The translations under genes were made by a program, and so were the position numbers. This document shows positions 484 through 44,238 of a DNA stretch of 64,000 bases, piece after piece. A model generated the notes under the pieces. That model saw only the letters and a program-made list of their open reading frames with translations, was not told the DNA's origin and did no database searches. Source of the stretch: a virus; the IMG/VR virus record IMGVR_UViG_3300030104_005320, positions 32,001 through 96,000 of that record; one strand, given 5' to 3'. The first letter of the stretch is position 1. Every line of letters begins with the position of its first letter.

Positions 484-2139
484 TTGGCAAGACCTTGTAA
501 ATGTTGTAGAGGAGAGATTAGCTCGGTAAGTGTAAGTACGGTATCTGCTAGTAGTCCGTCTATATCTTCTGTTTCCGGCTCTAGCTCTAGTGCATCCGGT
601 TCCTCGTCTTCTTCCTCGTCTTCTTCTTCCTCTTCTTCAAGTCGTCCTAGTAGTAGCGAGCCTAGTAGTAGTCGGCCCAGTAGTAGTGAACCGAGTAGCA
701 GCCAGCCCAGCAGTAGCGATATAAGTAGCTCATCGTCTGACCCCTTGAAGTGTTGTCAAATAAAACTTAATTTCTTACCATCTTGCGGTTGCGATTTTTC
801 TTGCAGTTATCTCGATCCAAGATGTCCTGACGGTAGAATAATGTGTCGAGATGAACCAGTGGTTGAGTCTGATCCATGTTGCCCTGCACCTTACGATACA
901 TATCGTCAAATCTCTCGCTATGGGCCAGATGCGGGCTATTGCTGTTATGTTGGAATGGGTGCTGGCTGTAGTCAAGTAACTTGGAGACTTCTTGATTATG
1001 AATATGATTGCAGTAGTGGAGCTTTTACTGTAGAGGTAGAAAACTGTCCTTGGTTTTTCTTGTCGGGCGGTGCGATAAGTTTACCTGCGTATCCTTCTTT
1101 TGACAGATTTCCTAAACTTTTCGGCATGAACGCTAATGTTAGTTCGAATTTGACTGTCTCACTAGAAGGAGGAGGAACCGACCCACAGGCTTCTCCTTGT
1201 AACTACACTTCTTATAATGACCCCGTTGTAGCCATAGGGGGAGCACCCCCCAACGCATACACTCATGGGGCATGTATCGTAAATTTAAAATGGGAAGGCA
1301 CAACCACACCGCCTACAAAAGCTAACTGTGGGCGTGTTTGCGATTGTTCGATTGGAACAGGTTCGTCCCCAAGAAAGGTGTGCAGAAATGTTTATGGAGC
1401 ACAGTATGGTTGGCCTCTTGAGGATTGCGGCTATGAAGCCTGTGGATGGTTTTTCGGGATGCTTCCCGGCAGTCAGGACATAGACTATTATCAGCCTTTT
1501 GTCGATTTTGAACCGGGGCCAATTCCTCCCGAAACAAGTCCCGATCCACCAGATCCCTTTTACGCTACCTGCATGTCTCCTCGTTTCAGAACTGCCCACA
1601 CCCGCACCGGAAGATTTACTTGTGGTATAGAGGCTGCGGAGTGGGCTTATATTCACTGGAATTTTACCAGTGCAGAAATTTGCGATCCAGACGTGGAGTG
1701 CGGCGGATCGTCGATCGGACGAAATCTATTAGAGTTGCCGATTAGTAGTGCATTTTGTCAACAGGGATGTCAAGATGCAATGGGGTCATCAAACGAGGGC
1801 GGGACTGGTCCCGGTGGAGGCTTCGGCCAATGGCCACCAGAAGCCTACTCTTCTAATAGAGTTGAAGATTTTTTTGTATTAAGCTCATACGGCGAGCAAC
1901 TCAACAAAAAAAGATCGACAGGCTCAATAAGTAGTAATAGAATGAGTAAGGCAAAAAGAACTGATTGCGATCAGGGATCTTGTGTTTGGGAATGTGTTCA
2001 AGACGGCGACCAAACAAGTTACTCGCTACTGCTGGACGATAGCGACTGCCTAAGCAAAAACCAGCCCTGTGGATGTGGAGATACAGGCCCATGCGGTCCA
2101 TGTAACCCCGGAGACATAATTTTTACGGAGTGTATTTAA
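484..2139 (+). CDS. Ser-rich, Cys-rich protein (possible virion decoration or fibre protein)
   Basis: TTG start after GGAGAGGA; N-terminal PCKCC, long poly-Ser tract, about 40 Cys in 551 aa. Confidence 0.7.
   Translation: MARPCKCCRGEISSVSVSTVSASSPSISSVSGSSSSASGSSSSSSSSSSSSSSRPSSSEPSSSRPSSSEPSSSQPSSSDISSSSSDPLKCCQIKLNFLPSCGCDFSCSYLDPRCPDGRIMCRDEPVVESDPCCPAPYDTYRQISRYGPDAGYCCYVGMGAGCSQVTWRLLDYEYDCSSGAFTVEVENCPWFFLSGGAISLPAYPSFDRFPKLFGMNANVSSNLTVSLEGGGTDPQASPCNYTSYNDPVVAIGGAPPNAYTHGACIVNLKWEGTTTPPTKANCGRVCDCSIGTGSSPRKVCRNVYGAQYGWPLEDCGYEACGWFFGMLPGSQDIDYYQPFVDFEPGPIPPETSPDPPDPFYATCMSPRFRTAHTRTGRFTCGIEAAEWAYIHWNFTSAEICDPDVECGGSSIGRNLLELPISSAFCQQGCQDAMGSSNEGGTGPGGGFGQWPPEAYSSNRVEDFFVLSSYGEQLNKKRSTGSISSNRMSKAKRTDCDQGSCVWECVQDGDQTSYSLLLDDSDCLSKNQPCGCGDTGPCGPCNPGDIIFTECI
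643..717 (+). repeat. Five 15-nt units encoding (R/E/Q)PSSS, following a poly-Ser tract
   Basis: cgtcctagtagtagc gagcctagtagtagt cggcccagtagtagt gaaccgagtagcagc cagcccagcagtagc. Confidence 0.85.
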
Positions 2140-6134: not shown

Positions 6135-7052
6135 ATGATAAAAATAAAGCCAGTAAATAACAGAGAAAGTGATGTAACCGACCTTAGCAATATTCAATAT
6201 CATCTCGATGTACTTTCTAGATCGGCTAAAGAAAAAAATAAAAATGAAACACTAGTCTTACAGGATGGCGTATACTATTTAAACGGTCCCTTGACGATAT
6301 CTGGCCATGTCAGCCTAGTTAGCGAAGGCAGGGGCAGGAGATCGGTTAGATTGGTCTTTACTGATCCGCAAAGCGATACGGCCTTGGTTACAGTAAAAAA
6401 CTGCAACGGTATTGTCTTTGATGGTATAAACATAAAAGCTTTTGGCGATGCCAACAGAGTCATTGGGCTTTTAAGCGAAAGTAATTCCTCTGCCACATTT
6501 AGTAATTTTGATATACAACTACAGTTAGGATTTGATTGTGTTGGCCTCAAGCATCGGCGTAATAAAATATGGGGAGAATCTTGCATCTATGAGAAGTTTG
6601 ACATAAGATCAGATGGTTCGTGTGTCGAAATACAAGGAGGAGACAATAATCAGTTTAGAGATTTTGATTGTACCGCCGGAACAAAAGTTCATCAGATGAT
6701 ATCTTCTGTATTTAAGTTTGCTGACAATTCTGTTCCGCACAATATTGTTATTGGCCCCGGAACTGGACAAAAGGGAGATCACGCTTACTACTGCAACTCT
6801 GTTTCCGATTCTATTTCAGGTGGCTTGATTACCTTTAGAGATTATAGATGGGAACAGCCTTCGTCTAAAGATACTGTAGCCTTCCTGCACACACCAAAAA
6901 GAAAAGACGGCAAACCGGGACATGTCACAGAAAGAGTTAATTTTATAGGGTGTAGAAACTCTAGAGTTAATCAGGCAGTTAAAATTGAAAACACTTTAAG
7001 AACTAGAATTATCGGCTGCTTTTTAGATGGTCAAAAGGATTTAGGTAAATGA
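6135..7052 (+). CDS. pectin lyase-fold beta-helix protein
   Basis: LVLQDGVYYLNGPLTISGHVSLVSEG is a typical beta-helix N-cap; repeated strand rungs follow. Confidence 0.6.
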   Translation: MIKIKPVNNRESDVTDLSNIQYHLDVLSRSAKEKNKNETLVLQDGVYYLNGPLTISGHVSLVSEGRGRRSVRLVFTDPQSDTALVTVKNCNGIVFDGINIKAFGDANRVIGLLSESNSSATFSNFDIQLQLGFDCVGLKHRRNKIWGESCIYEKFDIRSDGSCVEIQGGDNNQFRDFDCTAGTKVHQMISSVFKFADNSVPHNIVIGPGTGQKGDHAYYCNSVSDSISGGLITFRDYRWEQPSSKDTVAFLHTPKRKDGKPGHVTERVNFIGCRNSRVNQAVKIENTLRTRIIGCFLDGQKDLGK

Positions 7053-7519
7053 TAGATAAAAAAGATGCGTGGCATATGCTTTCTGTATGGGCCGCAGTAA
7101 AAATTGTTATAGCTATTGTAGTGCTATCGGTTATATTTTATTTCAACATGCCCACACAGACAGATGAAATATTCGGTGCTCCACGACATGGAACCGAGAG
7201 ATATTGGCAAGATGTAATTCACGAAGAACTTTCACAAAGAGACGGGTGGGGTTCTATCGAAAAAGAATACCGGCTAGACGATGGGACTAGGGTTGATTTG
7301 CTTCTCGAAAATGAGGCATGTGAGATTGACTGGGCCGATAAGTGGGCCGAAGGCGTAGGTCAATCAATTTATTATGGACTAAAAACCCGTAGAGGGCCGC
7401 TGGTTATTTTGCTTGCCAAGAAAGATGGCTGGGAAAAATACAGAGACAGGGTTGAATACTGCGGGGTAAATTGTTGGGTTTATGACACTAGAATAGAAGA
7501 TTGGGTTGACAAAGAATGA
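7049..7519 (+). CDS. membrane-anchored PD-(D/E)XK restriction-endonuclease-like protein
   Basis: N-terminal hydrophobic helix; EYRLDDGTRVDLL...EIDW....EGVGQSIYY core. Confidence 0.6.
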   Translation: MIDKKDAWHMLSVWAAVKIVIAIVVLSVIFYFNMPTQTDEIFGAPRHGTERYWQDVIHEELSQRDGWGSIEKEYRLDDGTRVDLLLENEACEIDWADKWAEGVGQSIYYGLKTRRGPLVILLAKKDGWEKYRDRVEYCGVNCWVYDTRIEDWVDKE

Positions 7520-7632
7520 TTACTGTTTTATCATGTGGACAATGCTGGCTTGGTATATCCCAGATATTAACCTTAGCCTTGATTTTTAGCGGGTCTGCTG
7601 TATATTGGATTAAAGAATTTTTTAAAAAGTAG
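7516..7632 (+). CDS. small membrane protein (MITVLSCGQCWLGISQILTLALIFSGSAVYWIKEFFKK), not in the ORF track
   Basis: ATGA overlap with the upstream stop; CxxC plus hydrophobic helix and basic tail; TAG at 7630-7632. Confidence 0.45.
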   Translation: MITVLSCGQCWLGISQILTLALIFSGSAVYWIKEFFKK

Positions 7633-7900
7633 CATGGCAGTTTGCCTGCCTAAACATGTAGATGTTATTATTGATGTTGTGACGGACGCGGGGGCAGTAC
7701 CCGCCACCTCCACTTCCCAGTCAAACGCTAGGGGGGTGAAACAGATTCGACGTGCGGCGTGATATAATAATTGCATGTGTTGGTTGATCTAAGGGCCAAC
7801 TAAAAAATAGATCAAAACTTTTAAATGCTGAACCTTGTTTAGCTTTGGCTGCGTAAAAACAGTCCGGGGGGTTGCCCGCCCTTGCTATCCAAACGGGCTT
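7633..7900 (+). ncRNA. ssrA: circularly permuted (two-piece) tmRNA; tag (A)AEPCLALAA; outer boundaries approximate
   Basis: Acceptor piece comes first: TAAACATGTAG, T-arm GCGGG-GGCAGTA-CCCGC (7688-7704), acceptor strand CACCTCC-A (7705-7712). A 19-nt spacer follows, then the coding piece GGGGGTG-AAACAGATTCGAC (from 7732) with a G3.U70 pair, helix 2, pseudoknot 1, and tag ORF 7827-7856. Confidence 0.93.
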
Positions 7901-8149
7901 TTATTCACATATTGAGAGGTTTGTTATAATGCTTCCGTTTTTGTCAAATTCTACAGGATTATCCAACACCCATTGATCTACACATTCTTTATGAAGAAAT
8001 GTCTCACCGGACAGTATAGACAGCATCCTAGCCACTAGAGGCTCGCTATACACCATTTTTTGCTCGCACTGGATACAGTTCGGGCTTGATTTAATCAAGA
8101 ATAACAAGCATACTACAGCAATAACTATATAGACCATGTATTTTTTCAT
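7901..8149 (-). CDS. small membrane protein with CxxC and HxxC (possible Zn binding)
   Basis: Only convincing minus-strand gene; GAGGAG RBS at 8156-8161 on the minus strand; N-terminal TM helix. Confidence 0.7.
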   Translation of the reverse strand: MKKYMVYIVIAVVCLLFLIKSSPNCIQCEQKMVYSEPLVARMLSILSGETFLHKECVDQWVLDNPVEFDKNGSIITNLSICE

Positions 8150-8176
8150 TTTCGTCTCCTCGTTGGTTGGCTACGA

Positions 8177-8187
8177 TATATACACAA
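8177..8187 (-). promoter_or_regulatory. TTGTGTATATA motif copy upstream of the minus-strand gene
   Basis: tatatacacaa on + reads TTGTGTATATA on -, oriented with gene 7901-8149. Confidence 0.5.
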
Positions 8188-8242
8188 CACGCCCCCTAAA
8201 TACGGTTAAGATAAAATTAATTTATTTTTTTTAAAGAATATG

Positions 8243-8271
8243 TTGGCAATTTGACGATATTGATATATAAT
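8243..8271 (+). promoter_or_regulatory. sigma70-type promoter
   Basis: TTGGCA-N17-TATAAT preceded by an AT-rich UP-like tract. Confidence 0.6.
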
Positions 8272-8275
8272 CATT

Positions 8276-8713
8276 GTGAAGGAAGCAAATCAAAGACTTG
8301 GAGTAGAAATGAAAACAGCACCATCAAAAAACTGCCCATCTTGCAACGCAAGAGTCCACGTTAGAAAATCTGAATGTTCCTGTGGACACTTATTTTATGA
8401 GAGAAAAAACAAAGTCATAACTAACTGGAAATCTTTAAAGGCTGGTGATACAATAAGATCTGTTTATGGCAATGGCCCATATTGGCAAGATCCCGAAACT
8501 AAAGAGAAAACATACATGGGTTCTTACGGTAAGTTTGTCGTTAATTATGTCGGCGACAACTACATAAGATGTACCGAGAAAGGTAGGAACCGTATGTCTG
8601 GCACTGTCATCTTGTACATGGGTGATGGTAAAAAATCGTTGTTGTGTGATAATTTGTATAAGTATCCACACAAATTAATTCGTGTTTCTTTGAAAAGAAA
8701 AGGAGAGTCTTAA
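8276..8713 (+). CDS. zinc-ribbon-containing hypothetical protein
   Basis: KNCPSC..........CSCGH; real start probably the ATG after GGAG (MKTAPSK). Confidence 0.6.
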   Translation: MKEANQRLGVEMKTAPSKNCPSCNARVHVRKSECSCGHLFYERKNKVITNWKSLKAGDTIRSVYGNGPYWQDPETKEKTYMGSYGKFVVNYVGDNYIRCTEKGRNRMSGTVILYMGDGKKSLLCDNLYKYPHKLIRVSLKRKGES

Positions 8714-8932
8714 ATGACTACAGATTGGTCCTCGCTTCTTAGTACGAAGCGAAATGTTATGGTCGTTTCTAATTTTGCAAAAGGTAATATTTCTGGTCGC
8801 CAGTTTTATTCTATGTTTGCAAACACAACAAATGGCGGAGCCGCCAGAACTTTGTTGCGTGAGCATGGTGTGACACAAGCACGATCTCTTGCCCGCAAAG
8901 CGTTGTCTCGCCGGTCGCTTACAAATATCTAG
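8714..8932 (+). CDS. hypothetical basic protein
   Basis: 72-aa ORF with AGGAGAG RBS. Confidence 0.65.
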   Translation: MTTDWSSLLSTKRNVMVVSNFAKGNISGRQFYSMFANTTNGGAARTLLREHGVTQARSLARKALSRRSLTNI

Positions 8933-8942
8933 GAGTTTTTAA

Positions 8943-9317
8943 ATGTTGAACAATAGAGTTATTCTAAAGGGAAATCTAACTAAAGATCCCGAATACAAAA
9001 ATGTATCAGAAAAACATCTTGTTACGTTTCGGATTGCTGTTAATGAATCAATCGGAAACGGACGAGAAGAAACTGTTTATCTAGATGTTGATGGGTGGGG
9101 TAGTCATGCAGATTATGCCCAGAACGTTTCGCTTGTCAAAGGTGATCGCGTTATCGTAGATGGCCGATTGCGTCAGCGTAACTGGGAAGACAAGAACGGT
9201 GTCAATAGAACTTCGTATACCGTCCTTCCTAGTACGTTTTCTAAGGTTGTCAAGCCTTCGCGTTCTGAGTCGCAGGGTACTGGCTTTGCCATGAACAAAG
9301 CCGAAGTGACAGTCTAG
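8943..9317 (+). CDS. ssb: single-stranded DNA-binding protein
   Basis: LNNRVILKGNLTKDPE, KGDRVIVDGRLRQRNWEDKNG OB-fold signature. Confidence 0.92.
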   Translation: MLNNRVILKGNLTKDPEYKNVSEKHLVTFRIAVNESIGNGREETVYLDVDGWGSHADYAQNVSLVKGDRVIVDGRLRQRNWEDKNGVNRTSYTVLPSTFSKVVKPSRSESQGTGFAMNKAEVTV

Positions 9318-11916: not shown

Positions 11917-12800
11917 TGAAATTAGCAATAACTCCTAGTAATCAAGATTTAACTTTAGTTTTATTTGATACCGAAACACAAAAAACAAAATTTATAAAAT
12001 CTGAAAAGGATCAGTTTAATAAAAACGCAGACGACTCAAGACCTTTACATAGACCTTTCGGGATTACTTGGAACAAGGAGAAGATATTTATAGCCAGCAG
12101 AAAAAACCTACTGGTATTTGACAATAGATTAAACTATATAGGAAAGCACGAGAATATACTAGACGAGAACACACATCAAATAACTTACTACGATGGCAAA
12201 ATAATTGCCACTATGACTAGAAAAGATTGTGTGTTATTTATTAATCTCGAAAAAAATAAGCAAGAATTATATCATCCGATAAAAGGCTGGATTACAAGTT
12301 GTGAATCGCTATCGCATGAAAACGAACAGTTTCACATAAATTCTTTAAATGTAACAGATGGATTTTTATATGTCATGCTCCACAATAGAGGGGTAAAAAA
12401 TAGTGAAATATTAGTTTTAGATATGCGGTTAAAGTCTCTAGTAAAGATCATAAACATGAAAGCAAAAAGGGCACACGGCATATATGCTAAAAAAGAAGTC
12501 TTAGGCACGCTAAACACAAACGACAATAACATAGTGATTAAAAACAAAATAATAGATATAAGCATACCAAAAAATCATTTTCTTAGAGGCATGGCTGGAG
12601 ATGATAATGAAATATGCTTTGCTCATTTTAAAGAAAATCTAAGAAGTTATAGAGGCGAAGGCGGCTCCTACATAAAAACCTTATCAGGTAAAAGTGGATA
12701 TATTGATGGTATAGGTTCAGTCAATGACATGAGAAGAATAGATGGAGTTGATCTTTGCCACAATAATAAATACAAGTTTCCATATGTGGGTAGTTTTTAA
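11916..12800 (+). CDS. beta-propeller-like hypothetical protein
   Basis: Repeated blade-like motifs PFGITW, THQI, HINSL, AHGI, FLRGM. Confidence 0.5.
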   Translation: MKLAITPSNQDLTLVLFDTETQKTKFIKSEKDQFNKNADDSRPLHRPFGITWNKEKIFIASRKNLLVFDNRLNYIGKHENILDENTHQITYYDGKIIATMTRKDCVLFINLEKNKQELYHPIKGWITSCESLSHENEQFHINSLNVTDGFLYVMLHNRGVKNSEILVLDMRLKSLVKIINMKAKRAHGIYAKKEVLGTLNTNDNNIVIKNKIIDISIPKNHFLRGMAGDDNEICFAHFKENLRSYRGEGGSYIKTLSGKSGYIDGIGSVNDMRRIDGVDLCHNNKYKFPYVGSF

Positions 12801-13366
12801 TGATTTTAACAACCAAGCACATAGATAGCGATATAATAGAAGAAGGGTTTTCAAAGTTTGTAGAAATGTCTAAAGATGTATCTAGTCTAAATAGTGACTT
12901 TTGGGACTGCAATAAAAAATTTAGAGCTGAATCGCTATGGGAAATGTGTAAAAAGGATAAGGCGGACGAAGATTCTAGCAGATATAGACTAGGAGAATAT
13001 TCAGATCATATAGAATATATGGAATATGTAGCTAGAAAGTTTTTGCTAGAACAAGAAATTATAAATAAAAATGACTCTATAACAAGAAGCGGAGAAGGCG
13101 TTTATCCTCCGGGCGGTTATATGGGGTGGCACACAAATAGAAATCGTGCTGGTATTAGGTGTTATTTTAATTGGGCATCTGAATCTGGTAAATCAGGTTT
13201 AAAATACTGGTACGAAGGGACAGATAAAATAATTAGAGATTCTATAGATCAAATTGGCTGGCAACTCAGAATGTTTTCTACCGATTATTCGAAACCATTT
13301 TGGCACGCTGTTTGGTCTGACTGCACGAGATTATCAATAGGCTTTAGAATAATAAAAGGAAAATAA
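12800..13366 (+). CDS. 2OG-Fe(II) oxygenase / cupin-like protein
   Basis: YPPGGYMGWHTN ... FWHAV ... RLSIGF. Confidence 0.65.
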   Translation: MILTTKHIDSDIIEEGFSKFVEMSKDVSSLNSDFWDCNKKFRAESLWEMCKKDKADEDSSRYRLGEYSDHIEYMEYVARKFLLEQEIINKNDSITRSGEGVYPPGGYMGWHTNRNRAGIRCYFNWASESGKSGLKYWYEGTDKIIRDSIDQIGWQLRMFSTDYSKPFWHAVWSDCTRLSIGFRIIKGK

Positions 13367-27674: not shown

Positions 27675-28326
27675 ACTGCTAGGATATTACGGATCAGATG
27701 AGACTATAGCTTGTAGTGCTTGGACTAGCACTAGTCGTGATTTAACAGACGATAAAAAAGCAAGAATCCCCAAACTGATTGATATGCTATGGAGCAACGG
27801 CCATGAAACACCATTCGAGAAGGGTACTGTTCATTTTCTTGTTGATACTGATATTGCCACTCATATACACCTACTTAAGCATAGAGTTTCTTCGCTTAAT
27901 GCTGAATCAGCTAGATATAAAGAATTAAAAGAAGACAAATTTTATCTACCTCTAGACTGGGGGGAAACTAGAGTCGGATCTTCTTCAATACCAAGGCTCG
28001 CAATAACCGGAGAGCATAGGTGGGTAGATATACTTGCCCAATACACAAACATAGGAAACGAGCTTTATCACAAATGTATTGATGATCTAACTCCGGTAGT
28101 TGGAAGAAAAAGAGCTAAAGAATCTGCAAGATTTTTCAAAACATATAACTCGCAAATTCAGGCTGACGTTATGTTTAACATGAGAAGTTTTGCAAACTTT
28201 CAAAAATTAAGAAATCACAAAGACGCACAGTTAGAAATTAGGGATATAGCTGTTGGGATGTTGGAACTGGTAAAAAACATAGAAGGACAACCATTCAAAC
28301 ATACTTTAAAATCTTGGAATTATTAG
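27658..28326 (+). CDS. thyX: flavin-dependent thymidylate synthase
   Basis: HETPFE, KHR.SS....SARY, NMRSF.NF..LR....AQLEIR. Confidence 0.92.
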   Translation: MKNKVELLGYYGSDETIACSAWTSTSRDLTDDKKARIPKLIDMLWSNGHETPFEKGTVHFLVDTDIATHIHLLKHRVSSLNAESARYKELKEDKFYLPLDWGETRVGSSSIPRLAITGEHRWVDILAQYTNIGNELYHKCIDDLTPVVGRKRAKESARFFKTYNSQIQADVMFNMRSFANFQKLRNHKDAQLEIRDIAVGMLELVKNIEGQPFKHTLKSWNY

Positions 28327-40178: not shown

Positions 40179-41771
40179 ATGAATAATTTTATACCTTTAA
40201 ATTGCAAGACTCACTACAGTTTACAAAAGGGCTTCTGTAGAAACCATTTACTGGCAAAGAAATGCAAAGAATATGGATACTCTGCCTGTGGAATCGCAGA
40301 TATCAGAACGCTTTCAGGGGCCGTTGACTTTCACCAGCAGTGCAAGAAAAATGGTATCAAGCCATTGATAGGATGTGATTTTGATGACTACATATTGTTC
40401 GCAAAAAACAAACAAGGATGGTTTGATTTAATAAAATATGTTTCAGACCAGACGCTAGAAGTTTTGAAATCTGTTGCAAAAAAAGGCAATCTACTATGCG
40501 TTTCTAAGAAGTCGAACGGTTTTAAAAAGCTTTTCAAAAGCAATCATTTTCAATACAACTATGATAAAAACAGCGTTTATTACGTCACTGAGGATGAAGC
40601 GGATTGTCATAGAATTTTACTTTGCTCTGGCATGAAGACAACAATGAAGAAGGTTGCTAAACTATTAAATCAAAAAGAAGACATTCAAAATAAAGAGTTT
40701 TTTCAAAAGTCCAACTTTTATCTGCCAACCCCAGAAGATATTGGCGATAACGATTATAAGACGCTTAACGAAATAGCAGACATGTGTGAAGACTATGAAG
40801 TTGCAGAGAAGCCAATGCTTCCCACTTTTGATTGTCCTGAAGGGACCGACGAAGACGAGTATTTGACCCAGCTTTGTAGAGTTGGCTGGAAGGAAAGGCT
40901 CATAGATAGCGGCAAAGTAGATAAAGAAGAAATTAAAAACGAATACGCCGAACGAGTTAAAAGCGAACTTAAAGTTATAATTAAGGCGGAGCTTTCTGGA
41001 TATTTTTTAATCGTTCAAGATATTATTAATTTTGTTAAGAGAAAAGGATGGCTTGCCGGACCCGGAAGAGGATCTGCCGCTGGCTGTCTAGTCTCATATT
41101 TGATGGGGATTACTGAGGTAGATCCAATTGAATATGGTTTGATTTTCGAAAGATTTTACAATGAGGGAAGAAATACAGAGGATCATGTTTCTCTCCCTGA
41201 TATCGATATGGATGTTCCAGCAGAATACAGAGACGATGTTATAGATTATATTAAAGAAAAATACGGCGAAGAAAATGTGGCACAAATGATTACATTTGGC
41301 AGACTCCAAGGCAGGGCAGCAGTCAAAGAAGTTTTGAGAATTAATGAGGCCGTGTCTTTTTCTGAAATGAACGCTATAACTGAAAGTATACCGGATGAAG
41401 CCAGAATCTCAGATCAGCTTGAGCTAATGGAAGAAAAATCAATTATTAAATGGACTTTAGAAAATGAGCCTGAGAATCTGAAAAACTGGTGTATAATGCA
41501 AGACGACGGAAGTTTAAGCGGCCCTCTTGCCAATCTGTTTGAACAAGCTATAAAAATTGAAGGAACAAATAAGTCACAAGGCAAACATCCCGCAGGAGTA
41601 ATTATTTCTAAAAATAGACTCGCAGACGTTTGCCCGATGACTACCGACAAGTCTGGAGATCCAGTGGCATCTTTAGATATGGGAGATTTAGAAACTTTAG
41701 GCCACGTAAAATTTGACGTTCTTGGAATCGATTTATTATCTAAAATAATGGAGATTGTAAAAAATGACTGA
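40179..41771 (+). CDS. dnaE: DNA polymerase III alpha, N-terminal part (degenerate PHP, palm and thumb)
   Basis: THYSL, GPGRGSAAG, FERFYN, PDIDMD, GKHPAGV, KFDVLG, then stop. Confidence 0.93.
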   Translation: MNNFIPLNCKTHYSLQKGFCRNHLLAKKCKEYGYSACGIADIRTLSGAVDFHQQCKKNGIKPLIGCDFDDYILFAKNKQGWFDLIKYVSDQTLEVLKSVAKKGNLLCVSKKSNGFKKLFKSNHFQYNYDKNSVYYVTEDEADCHRILLCSGMKTTMKKVAKLLNQKEDIQNKEFFQKSNFYLPTPEDIGDNDYKTLNEIADMCEDYEVAEKPMLPTFDCPEGTDEDEYLTQLCRVGWKERLIDSGKVDKEEIKNEYAERVKSELKVIIKAELSGYFLIVQDIINFVKRKGWLAGPGRGSAAGCLVSYLMGITEVDPIEYGLIFERFYNEGRNTEDHVSLPDIDMDVPAEYRDDVIDYIKEKYGEENVAQMITFGRLQGRAAVKEVLRINEAVSFSEMNAITESIPDEARISDQLELMEEKSIIKWTLENEPENLKNWCIMQDDGSLSGPLANLFEQAIKIEGTNKSQGKHPAGVIISKNRLADVCPMTTDKSGDPVASLDMGDLETLGHVKFDVLGIDLLSKIMEIVKND

Positions 41772-42008: not shown

Positions 42009-42692
42009 ATTAATTATCGAGATATCATAGTATTTGACTTCGAGACGACTGGCTCTAACCCCCACGGATGTCAACCCACACAGATAGCCGCCGTGGCACT
42101 GCATCCGAGAAAACTCACGGTACAACCGGGAGGATATTTTGAAAGCAAGATAAGATGCATAAATAATGACGACAAAGCTGTCGCGGCTGGTTTTGATCCA
42201 ATTGAAGAAAAGGCACTTGAAGTCACTGGAAGGACCAGAAAAGATATAGGCACAGGCCCGCTACCGAAAACTGTATGGAAAAAGTTCGCCCAGTTCTGTG
42301 ATAAGTTTAACTTTAAAGGCACACAGTGGACCGCACCGGTGGCTGCTGGATATAATATTAATGGCTTTGATATGCCCATCGTAGAACGTATGTGCAAAAT
42401 GTACGGGCCAATTGACGAAAAAAGGGGCAGACAGAAAATCTTTAATCAAATTTTTACAATGGATTTAATGCCACACGTTTATTGCTGGTTTGAGAACAAT
42501 CAAGACGTAAAGGGATACAGTATGGACTACCTACGTGATTACTTTGGAATCTCTAAAGAAAACGCTCACGACGCTCTACAGGACGTTAAAGATACAGCTA
42601 ATATACTTATCAAGTTTCTTCTGCTGCAAAGAAATTTATCTAAAAAAATAAGATTTGAAAAGGCTTTTGCTAATGGCGAGTTGTATGTTTGA
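42009..42692 (+). CDS. DEDDh 3'-5' exonuclease (DnaQ-like), apparent ATT start
   Basis: Frame extended upstream of 42093 gives VFDFETTG (ExoI); then YNINGFD (ExoII) and HDALQD (ExoIII). Confidence 0.85.
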   Translation: MNYRDIIVFDFETTGSNPHGCQPTQIAAVALHPRKLTVQPGGYFESKIRCINNDDKAVAAGFDPIEEKALEVTGRTRKDIGTGPLPKTVWKKFAQFCDKFNFKGTQWTAPVAAGYNINGFDMPIVERMCKMYGPIDEKRGRQKIFNQIFTMDLMPHVYCWFENNQDVKGYSMDYLRDYFGISKENAHDALQDVKDTANILIKFLLLQRNLSKKIRFEKAFANGELYV

Positions 42693-44238
42693 TATTAATA
42701 ATTTTGAAGATAGCAACGTCTGGGACTTAATTTGCGAAGGAAACACTAAAGGTGTCTTTCAGCTTGAGTCTAGCTTGGGTCGTCACTGGGCCAAGAAAAC
42801 CAAGCCAAGAAGCATTAACGAACTAGCCGCTCTTATTTCTCTCATACGTCCGGGCGTTTTAAAGGCCAAGGTAGATGGCAAATCTATGGCTGATCATTAT
42901 GTTGATCGCAAAGAAAACAAAGATCCGGTAACTTATCCCCACGATTCTCTAGAACCGATTCTCAGTGAGACTTTTGGCGTTCTTGTTTATCAAGAGCAGT
43001 CTATGAAGATTGCACAGGTTTTAGCTGGCTTCGATCTAAAAGAAGCAGACGCACTAAGAAAAGCTATCGGTAAAAAGAAAGCAGACTTAATGGAGAAGGT
43101 TAAGACCAAATTCTTGCAGGGCACAAAAAAACAAGGCATCGTGACAGACGATGTAGCTGATGAAATTTTTTCTTGGATTGAAAAGTCTAACAGATATGCT
43201 TTCAATAAATCTCACGCTGTTTCTTACGCTATTGATGCGTTTTGGAGTGCTTATTGTAAAACATACAGACTCAAAAAGTTTTATAATACATATCTAGGTA
43301 GAGCAGATAAGAAGCCAAAGCCAGACATTGAAAAAAAAGAACTGATAATGGATGCTAGGCGTTCAAATATAGATATCCTTCCTCCAAGACTACAGCATCT
43401 TTTTACAGATTTTACTATGGATAATGAAAAAAATGTAATCTATTATGGATTACGCCATGTTAAAAACGTAGGAATCAAAGAATGCGAAAAATTAGAAAAG
43501 ATTAAAACATCTACAGATATATCTGGATATAATTGGCTAGACTGTCTAATCAATATTATTTACAAATGCAACCTGAATAAAAGATCGGTTATTTCTCTTA
43601 TATCGGTTGGAGCATTTAATGGCGTTAATAATACTGTTAGTAGAGCGAAAATGCTTTACGAATTTGATAGCTGGAAACAGTTGTCAGCCAGAGAGCAAGA
43701 GTACATATCAACCATATACAAAGATAAAAAAGACTTAGCAGATTGTATTCGCTTTACTCTTGAGTCTTCAGACATTAAAATTAATAGCCGTAGAAATCCC
43801 ACTGTTGTAGATATAAAAAATTCATTAGAGAACCCATTTTATAATCTGGACGATACACCTCACACAATATCCACAGAAGAAGAAAAATATATGAGTTGTT
43901 CTTTGACTTGTAACAAAATCGACGGAATTGATTTAAATATATCAACTTCCGTGTGCAAAGATATATCTAATGAGTCGATAACAGGTAAAGTAAATCTAGC
44001 TGCTCAGATAAATTCTGTCAGAATATATAAAACTAAAAGAGGGAAAAATCCCGGCCAAACTATGGCCTTCTTGTGTGTTGAGGATGGAAGCGGCTCCCTT
44101 GATTCTGTTACTGTATTTCCAGAGGCTTATGAGGAGAACCGAGATTTACTGATAGAAGGAAATACTGTACTAATAATTGGAGAGATATCTAAAAAAGACA
44201 AAAAATCTATTATTGTCAACAAGGTGTCGCAAATTTGA
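42685..44238 (+). CDS. dnaE: DNA polymerase III alpha, C-terminal part (fingers, HhH, OB)
   Basis: GVFQLES, LIRPG, VYQEQ, ADALRKAIGKKK, YAFNKSHA, GL..VKNVG, MAFLCVEDGSG; ATG 42685 overlaps the exonuclease end. Confidence 0.93.
   Translation: MFDINNFEDSNVWDLICEGNTKGVFQLESSLGRHWAKKTKPRSINELAALISLIRPGVLKAKVDGKSMADHYVDRKENKDPVTYPHDSLEPILSETFGVLVYQEQSMKIAQVLAGFDLKEADALRKAIGKKKADLMEKVKTKFLQGTKKQGIVTDDVADEIFSWIEKSNRYAFNKSHAVSYAIDAFWSAYCKTYRLKKFYNTYLGRADKKPKPDIEKKELIMDARRSNIDILPPRLQHLFTDFTMDNEKNVIYYGLRHVKNVGIKECEKLEKIKTSTDISGYNWLDCLINIIYKCNLNKRSVISLISVGAFNGVNNTVSRAKMLYEFDSWKQLSAREQEYISTIYKDKKDLADCIRFTLESSDIKINSRRNPTVVDIKNSLENPFYNLDDTPHTISTEEEKYMSCSLTCNKIDGIDLNISTSVCKDISNESITGKVNLAAQINSVRIYKTKRGKNPGQTMAFLCVEDGSGSLDSVTVFPEAYEENRDLLIEGNTVLIIGEISKKDKKSIIVNKVSQI

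Follow-up and report, generated by a model that had tools for sequence, protein, structure and literature searches.

The stretch between positions 7636 and 7898 raises the question of whether a phage carries a working tmRNA gene whose two halves stand in permuted order and, if so, whether the RNA merely backs up trans-translation in its host or tunes it. The window, i.e., the whole stretch of 64,000 nucleotides that was analyzed, corresponds to bases 32001–96000 of a 115,903-bp IMG/VR virus record (IMGVR_UViG_3300030104_005320). Positions are those of the window unless a record or contig is named.

The phage and its gene content

The source record is ~75% complete (CheckV), with a complete phage genome estimated at ~155 kb. 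Its replication genes comprise RNR, a DnaB-like helicase, a UvsX-like recombinase, SSB, and a split DnaE-type polymerase; a head-maturation protease is encoded elsewhere in the record, which is assigned as viral. The polymerase is at best ≤36% identical to those of isolate phages, i.e., no isolated phage is close, while near-identical DNA is present in marine metagenomes from several studies. The carrier is an uncultured marine tailed phage. Its DnaE-type (Pol III alpha) polymerase is divided between ORFs 40179–41771 and 42655–44238 (plus strand), with other genes between them.

Searches by blastn with the tmRNA locus returned no match among 50,697 phage records at E ≤ 1e-5, and only T-arm matches or chance matches among isolate phages at E ≤ 10. 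The 305-aa upstream protein, used as a query for related loci in IMG/VR, retrieved none. No host could be assigned on the basis of the tmRNA; its T-arm by itself recurs in Saccharibacteria, Sphingomonadales, and others. Outside the window, the record holds three phage tRNA genes (record 27675–28270; Ile-UAU, Met-CAU, and Arg-UCU), none of which encodes CCA. These decode A-ending codons, which fits a phage more AT-rich than its host. A second tRNA-like element of the same phage, also outside the window, lies at record ~12700–12850. It has a T-arm GUAGGG-UUCGAUU-CCCUAC and an acceptor-like helix, ACUGGAG/CUCCAGU, whose strands stand ~120 nt apart and after which comes ACC; the element matched no Rfam family at E ≤ 1.

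Identification of the permuted tmRNA gene

From sequence inspection alone, the first-pass annotation had proposed a phage-borne, permuted tmRNA with its own tag, and two independent programs uphold that proposal. Whether run on the window or on the full record, ARAGORN called a single tmRNA, flagged it as permuted, and read its tag as AEPCLALAA. Infernal with Rfam 15 matched RF04321 (tmRNA_permuted) at 89.2 bits (gathering score 47) along the entire model (positions 1–213 of 213), and RF01849 (alpha_tmRNA) at 73 bits against a gathering score of 50, in the latter case aligning only model positions 40–270 of 355. E-values were ~1e-16 to 1e-18, and no non-canonical pairs were flagged among the modeled pairs. 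Twelve helices were mapped by hand in the gene, and every pair is canonical. The features of the locus are as follows:

7516–7632, plus strand: 38-codon ORF (MITVLSCGQCW...KEFFKK), a hydrophobic, membrane-like peptide with CxxC; frame open in four syntenic relatives
7579–7606, plus strand: weak sigma-70-like site TTGATT-16-TATATT inside the 38-codon ORF; only the −10 is conserved
7636–7712, plus strand: acceptor piece (normal 3' part of tmRNA), with hairpin, helix-2 5' strands, T-arm, acceptor 3' strand, and discriminator A
7636–7650, plus strand: 5' hairpin GGCAG/CUGCC, from Rfam and hand mapping; its equivalent in the family (helix 1) covaries
7654–60, 7665–71, 7676–80, and 7682–84, plus strand: helix 2, 5' strands; 22 pairs, all canonical, with covariation
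7688–7704, plus strand: T-arm GCGGG/CCCGC with alpha-type loop GGCAGUA, pairs 7688–92/7700–04, from Rfam and hand mapping
7705–7712, plus strand: acceptor 3' strand CACCUCC and discriminator A7712; CUU comes next, CCA is not encoded
7705–11/7732–38, plus strand: acceptor stem, 7/7 pairs, with G7734·U7709 at position 3:70
7713–7731, plus strand: intervening spacer of 19 nt, predicted to be excised in processing; its CACUUCCC mimics the acceptor 3' strand
7732–7898, plus strand: coding piece (normal 5' part), with acceptor 5' strand, D-loop analogue, helix-2 3' strands, pseudoknot 1 (PK1), tag, helix 5, and terminal pseudoknot
7751–53, 7754–58, 7764–70, and 7772–78, plus strand: helix 2, 3' strands, from hand mapping, with covariation
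7779–7814, plus strand: PK1, stem 1 7779–84/7795–7800 and stem 2 7785–91/7808–14, all canonical
7827–7856, plus strand: tag frame AEPCLALAA, resume codon GCU 7827, stop UAA, called by ARAGORN
7847–7864, plus strand: helix 5 GGCUG/CAGUC, pairs 7847–51/7860–64, with the UAA stop codon in the loop
7868–7898, plus strand: terminal H-type pseudoknot, stem 1 7868–71/7879–82 and stem 2 GCCCG/CGGGC 7874–78/7894–98

The gene order is thus permuted: the 3' half of the tRNA-like domain, with its acceptor 3' strand at 7705–7712, comes first, followed by the spacer (7713–7731) and only then by the 5' strand (7732–7738). The tRNA-like domain has a 7-bp acceptor stem with G3·U70, a discriminator A, and a 5-bp T-arm, and is without an anticodon arm. 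Helix 2 joins the two pieces through the pairings 7654–60/7772–78, 7665–71/7764–70, 7676–80/7754–58, and 7682–84/7751–53; its cognate duplex has an energy of −28.5 kcal/mol and ranks first among 24 homologues in both directions. Ahead of the resume codon stand U (−5) and A (−4).

The anatomy given in the first-pass annotation is correct in all its coordinates. Its T-arm and T-loop, its acceptor strand CACCUCC-A followed by a 19-nt spacer and GGGGGUG at 7732, its fully paired acceptor stem with the 3:70 wobble, its helix 2 across both pieces, both stems of PK1, and its AEPCLALAA-UAA frame from 7827 all recur in our mapping, as does its remark that CCA is not fully encoded. It did miss helix 5, the terminal pseudoknot, and the abutting 38-codon ORF, and the compactness it noted, in an RNA it had otherwise identified correctly, is ordinary for compact alpha-type genes. 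Overall, we are highly confident that a phage-borne ssrA gene lies at 7636–7898 (plus strand), intact, circularly permuted, and alphaproteobacterial in architecture.

Covariation evidence

RNAalifold, run on 13 compact homologues, independently recovered the hairpin, helix 2, the T-arm, and the acceptor stem. In this fold 16 of 35 pairs were compensatory, and the G·U was invariant among the 13 sequences. A covariance model from that alignment then served to realign 52 homologues of viral or alphaproteobacterial origin. Over the 51 distinct ones, pairing in the tRNA-like domain and helix 2 extended to 93.1% of cells, compared with 39–47% in a control in which the 3' partners were slid by 1–3 columns. 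Double changes occurred in 24 of 35 pairs, and the covariation score was 0.556, compared with 0.06–0.08 when slid; G3·U70 was kept in all but one of the 51 homologues (50/51). The window's own row forms 34 of the 35 pairs, and in 12 of these both bases differ from the commonest pair.

The coding piece behaves in the same way within the clade of relatives described below. PK1 stems 1 and 2, helix 5, and stem 2 of the terminal pseudoknot had 95.9% of cells paired (20–50% slid) and double changes in 12 of 22 pairs. By eye, PK1 occurs in six stem-1 versions and at least six stem-2 versions, all of them complementary. The fourth pair of helix 5 appears as U-A, A-U, G·U, and C-G, and terminal stem 2 as GCCCG/CGGGC, GCCAG/CUGGC, and GUUAU/AUAGC. 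Terminal stem 1, judged by eye only, varies at its third pair (G-C, U-A, and A-U). Plain MAFFT alignments were out of register by one base in the variable helices, which defeated column-wise covariation there, and two covariance-model alignments were used instead. As such alignments lean towards the pairing of their model, we relied on the slid-partner controls; these, together with the many distinct variants, argue that the covariation signal is real. Covariation among relatives, a line of evidence the first-pass annotation had pointed to, hence supports the tRNA-like domain, helix 2, and PK1 alike, and it supplies support for pseudoknots that Rfam does not model.

A marine clade and its conservation

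Relatives were sought with the tag peptide, allowing synonymous freedom, and then independently of the tag with the helix-2 5' strand. Besides the window, the resulting clade comprises four IMG/VR contigs and 38 contigs from marine metagenomes (TARA and JGI), none of them from an isolate, and contains 23 distinct full genes. Two contigs matching the pattern GGGGGTGAAACAGATTCGACG were rejected as relatives; they carry short standard-tmRNA-like elements. Locus L043 was likewise set aside: it also lacks CCA, yet belongs to a different lineage.

Nine metagenome contigs are syntenic with the phage, their upstream proteins being 48–95% identical. In these syntenic relatives, the tmRNA pieces are 93–99% identical to the window, the flanking ORFs 79–91%, and the upstream small-ORF stretch 72–83%; the tmRNA is more conserved than the flanking genes. 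CCA is encoded in no clade member, and its absence both throughout the clade and from the phage's own tRNA genes points to reliance on a host CCA-adding enzyme and not to decay.

One IMG/VR contig (L170; IMGVR_UViG_3300020189_000772) holds only the 3' part of a clade gene at 1325–1462 (minus strand), with the PK1 stem-2 3' strand, a tag AEPCFALAA, helix 5, and the terminal pseudoknot. Upstream of that stretch it has no recognizable tRNA-like domain, and its layout marks this copy as a truncated or rearranged clade gene.

The spacer of the window gene opens with CUUCCCAG, so that CACUUCCC repeats the acceptor 3' strand. In the minimum-free-energy fold of the precursor, the hairpin, helix 2, and the T-arm are kept, and the acceptor 5' strand pairs with the spacer's CACUUCCC. 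Where spacers start, CUUNCC is a recurrent motif in the clade. Spacer length ranges from 6 to 129 nt within the clade, and in locus L208 the spacer is ~440 nt. A further metagenome contig (L176; Ga0114901_1030741) carries, at 380–1300, a complete clade tmRNA gene followed by an ORF at 808–1090 and a second, orphan acceptor piece at 1099–1190, with no coding piece within ~800 nt; where the spacer of the orphan piece would be, an ORF starts. Judging from these arrangements, the spacers of permuted genes seem to tolerate insertions.

Transcription, processing, and proposed action

Immediately upstream, the stretch 7516–7632 is not intergenic, a reading that we rejected, but a conserved coding ORF. 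Its start overlaps the stop of ORF 7049–7519 (ATGA), it ends 3 nt before the tmRNA hairpin, and substitutions in relatives fall mostly at third codon positions; no PHROG match was found for it. No convincing dedicated tmRNA promoter was found at the locus. The sigma-70-like site at 7579–7606 is a possible internal promoter, on the strength of a hint only, and promoter-like sites at the locus are no commoner than in shuffles. In metatranscriptome X13, 19% of the words of the 2-kb stretch are present, with contigs covering only 8579–9287 (SSB region) and not the tmRNA; two RNA runs from a possible source sample gave no match to the stretch. At the 3' end, the run UUUUAUU after the terminal pseudoknot suggests that the pseudoknot may double as a terminator; an intrinsic-terminator scan of the tmRNA locus found none, because the stem-2 loop exceeds the length the scanner allows.

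The steps of processing, charging, and tagging that we propose are taken from established tmRNA biology (PMC3985003, PMC3968760). A single precursor would be produced by read-through from the upstream operon or from the weak internal promoter. Host RNase P would cleave 5' of G7732, and the 3' end would be trimmed to A7712, to which the host CCA-adding enzyme would add CCA. The acceptor piece (~77 nt plus CCA) and the coding piece (~167 nt) would remain paired, be charged by host AlaRS, and be delivered to stalled ribosomes by host SmpB and EF-Tu. Translation would resume at GCU 7827 and append A-AEPCLALAA, of which the C-terminal LAA would direct degradation of the ClpXP type. The benefit for the phage could be that ribosome rescue keeps going in infection while host transcription and mRNA are disrupted. 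The roles put forward in the first-pass annotation, a return of trans-translation once defence systems have cleaved host tmRNA or tRNA, or a redirection of proteolysis, are speculative.

Neither SmpB nor a CCA-adding enzyme is encoded anywhere in the 116-kb record (~75% complete). The first-pass annotation had seen no smpB in the window and expected reliance on the host protein or on a gene elsewhere; the whole record is in line with that, and with both factors absent from it, the function of the tmRNA would depend entirely on the host. Phage ClpP was considered as a partner in proteolysis and rejected, the ClpP-like gene being the head-maturation protease.

Relation to known systems

Among bacterial two-piece tmRNAs, the ssrA of Caulobacter was reportedly described by Keiler, Shapiro, and Williams in 2000. 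Compared with alphaproteobacterial tmRNA as represented by RF01849 and Caulobacter ssrA, the window gene has the same gene order, a GGCAGUA-type T-loop, G3·U70, and a long helix 2, and it shares with RF01849 the single PK1, helix 5 with the stop in its loop, and a terminal pseudoknot. It differs in its partial match to the model, its loop 3, its nine-codon tag without NDN, its lack of CCA, and its location in a phage. Loop 3 of the terminal pseudoknot reads UGCUAUCCAAA, whereas the strongly conserved alpha consensus is GGCAACAGAA, although the architecture is alike; the loop GGCAACAGAA and the NDN motif are typical of the RF01849 family without formally defining it.

The first-pass annotation had held phage tmRNAs to be one-piece, which is wrong. 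Buchholz et al. (2022) reported a two-piece tmRNA in the OM43 phage Melnitz, and their survey of 18,146 isolate phage genomes yielded 53 unique two-piece forms, of which 50 were marine or aquatic (PMC9004378). Those in its Table S1 include phiCbK-like Caulobacter phages, the Pelagibacter phages HTVC008M and Mosig, Roseobacter phage DSS3_MAL1, and cyanomyophages, and a 2025 paper on the tmRNA database puts the number of bacteriophage sequences at 79 (PMC11915505). As two-piece phage tmRNAs are already published, a claim of novelty for the class fails; the class is known, and nothing is overturned. The window phage resembles the published cases (PMC9004378) in being marine or aquatic, in carrying a complete permuted ssrA of the alphaproteobacterial type, and in that no phage SmpB is reported. 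It is unlike them in having a DnaE-type polymerase, in not being T4-like, and in its different tag family, and its tmRNA has no detectable sequence similarity to isolate phages beyond the T-arm. A glutamine (glnA-type) riboswitch, as found with the Melnitz ssrA, is absent: a permissive Rfam scan of 7000–8700 gave the two tmRNA models only.

Unannotated permuted alpha-type genes are also present in Erythrobacter phage vB_EliS-L02 (OL955261) and Mesorhizobium phage Cp1R7A-A1 (MT188704), scoring 83.7 and 112.2 bits with RF01849, respectively. Both share with the window gene the permuted alpha-type order, a large phage genome, and a similar T-arm, but they match the full model and have NDN tags of 15–17 residues and longer spacers; one of the two has its tmRNA inside a tRNA array, unlike the window gene. 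The tmRNAs of Bxz1-like mycobacteriophages and the DS6A RNA are alike in being phage-borne, tmRNA-like, and served by host SmpB, but they have the standard unpermuted order, and DS6A is without a tag frame. In a Marinovum MAG, alpha_tmRNA matched twice (283.9 and 116.9 bits; C105:54179–54516 and C85:60283–60614). The weaker match has lower GC and a viral-type T-arm; it probably stems from a phage or prophage whose copy ended up in the same bin as the genome.

Function, tag, and the tRNA-like domain

A non-functional relic, i.e., a host ssrA fragment acquired by imprecise excision or an attP-type remnant now in decay, might explain the missing CCA, the atypical tag, the diverged loop 3, and the lack of SmpB in the record. 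However, both pieces are complete, every helix is intact with strong covariation, and the tmRNA is more conserved than its neighbors. The record, ~75% complete, contains no integrase, which speaks against an attP or prophage remnant, and the missing CCA is clade-wide and common to the phage tRNA genes in a clade that is widespread in marine metagenomes. This explanation is largely refuted, and we give it next to no probability. It is also highly unlikely that the RNA serves chiefly to hold back host trans-translation, as a decoy or inhibitor titrating SmpB, AlaRS, or EF-Tu, in the way reported for the mycobacteriophage DS6A RNA. A passage of the tmRNA database paper provides a precedent, in that a phage tRNA-like-domain RNA without a reading frame is reported to inhibit endogenous tmRNA in E. 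coli (PMC11915505), and the absence of a phage-encoded SmpB would suit such a role. A pure decoy, though, needs no tag frame, resume context, PK1, or helix 5, so that the conservation of all four (the context including U−5 and A−4) and the synonymous nature of the tag substitutions count against it. The phage two-piece tmRNA is real and intact and, as far as its sequence allows such a judgment, very probably functional.

What sets the clade apart is its tag. Tags retrieved tag-independently are AEPCLALAA, AEPCFALAA, and AEETLALAA, with single VEENFALAA-like and xEEKFALAA-like outliers; the clade tags have nine codons and the form x-E-(P/E)-x-(L/F)-ALAA. The motif NDN is said, in reports of 2007 by Lessner et al. 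and by Chien et al., to be the alphaproteobacterial SspB determinant, and it is absent from AEPCLALAA and from tags throughout the clade. A possible but rather doubtful interpretation is that the RNA is a working tmRNA whose short, NDN-less tag has been favored by selection in phages because it alters what becomes of tagged proteins, which would make the RNA a modified host system and not a spare copy; ClpXP might, for example, degrade such proteins independently of an SspB-type adaptor or with other kinetics. Such an origin would accord with the two parts of ssrA tags, an N-terminal SspB-binding (adaptor) part and a C-terminal ClpX degron (PMC8138137). In a comparison set of 63 other permuted tmRNAs (37 viral and 26 bacterial) that were chosen by a shared T-arm, NDN is present in 63/63 and tags have at least 11 residues, a contrast with the nine codons kept by the whole clade. 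Within clade tag groups, changes are synonymous in eight cases and a conservative L/F exchange in one, some of the sites also lying in helix 5. The clade tag pattern is found in none of 401 evenly drawn genomes, all from the single class Alphaproteobacteria, nor in isolate phages or the searchable literature. Against selection in phages, the host may itself use such a tag, and the selection of both the genomes and the comparison set limits what their uniformity can tell.

The tRNA-like domain appears mosaic. T-loops of the alpha type (GGCAGUA) and of the tRNA type (UUCGAUU, UUCGACU, and UUCAACU) each occur with both AEPC and AEET tags, and this mixing of T-loop types across tag types fits exchange of the tRNA-like domain, which the permuted gene order makes one contiguous block of ~75 nt. 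The exact 29-nt T-arm/acceptor block of the window is identical in 39 further, otherwise unrelated IMG/VR contigs and in no genome of the bacterial species scanned, although the T-arm alone is common in bacteria. As the comparison sets were chosen by sequence patterns, the odd tag, the mosaic domain, and the distribution of the 29-mer are suggestive only. Tentatively, they could reflect a phage-specific lineage of two-piece tmRNA among marine phages that is not simply a copy from the host, in which the nine-residue, NDN-less tag would uncouple tagging from SspB-type adaptors and the tRNA-like block would be swapped as a cassette.

New here are an undescribed marine clade and its tag, and their significance is modest. 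With the window gene, the ribosome-rescue RNAs known from phages gain a well-supported member along with an entire uncultured marine clade, and the odd tag together with the shuffled tRNA-like domains offers a way of asking whether trans-translation is tuned by phages or simply backed up.
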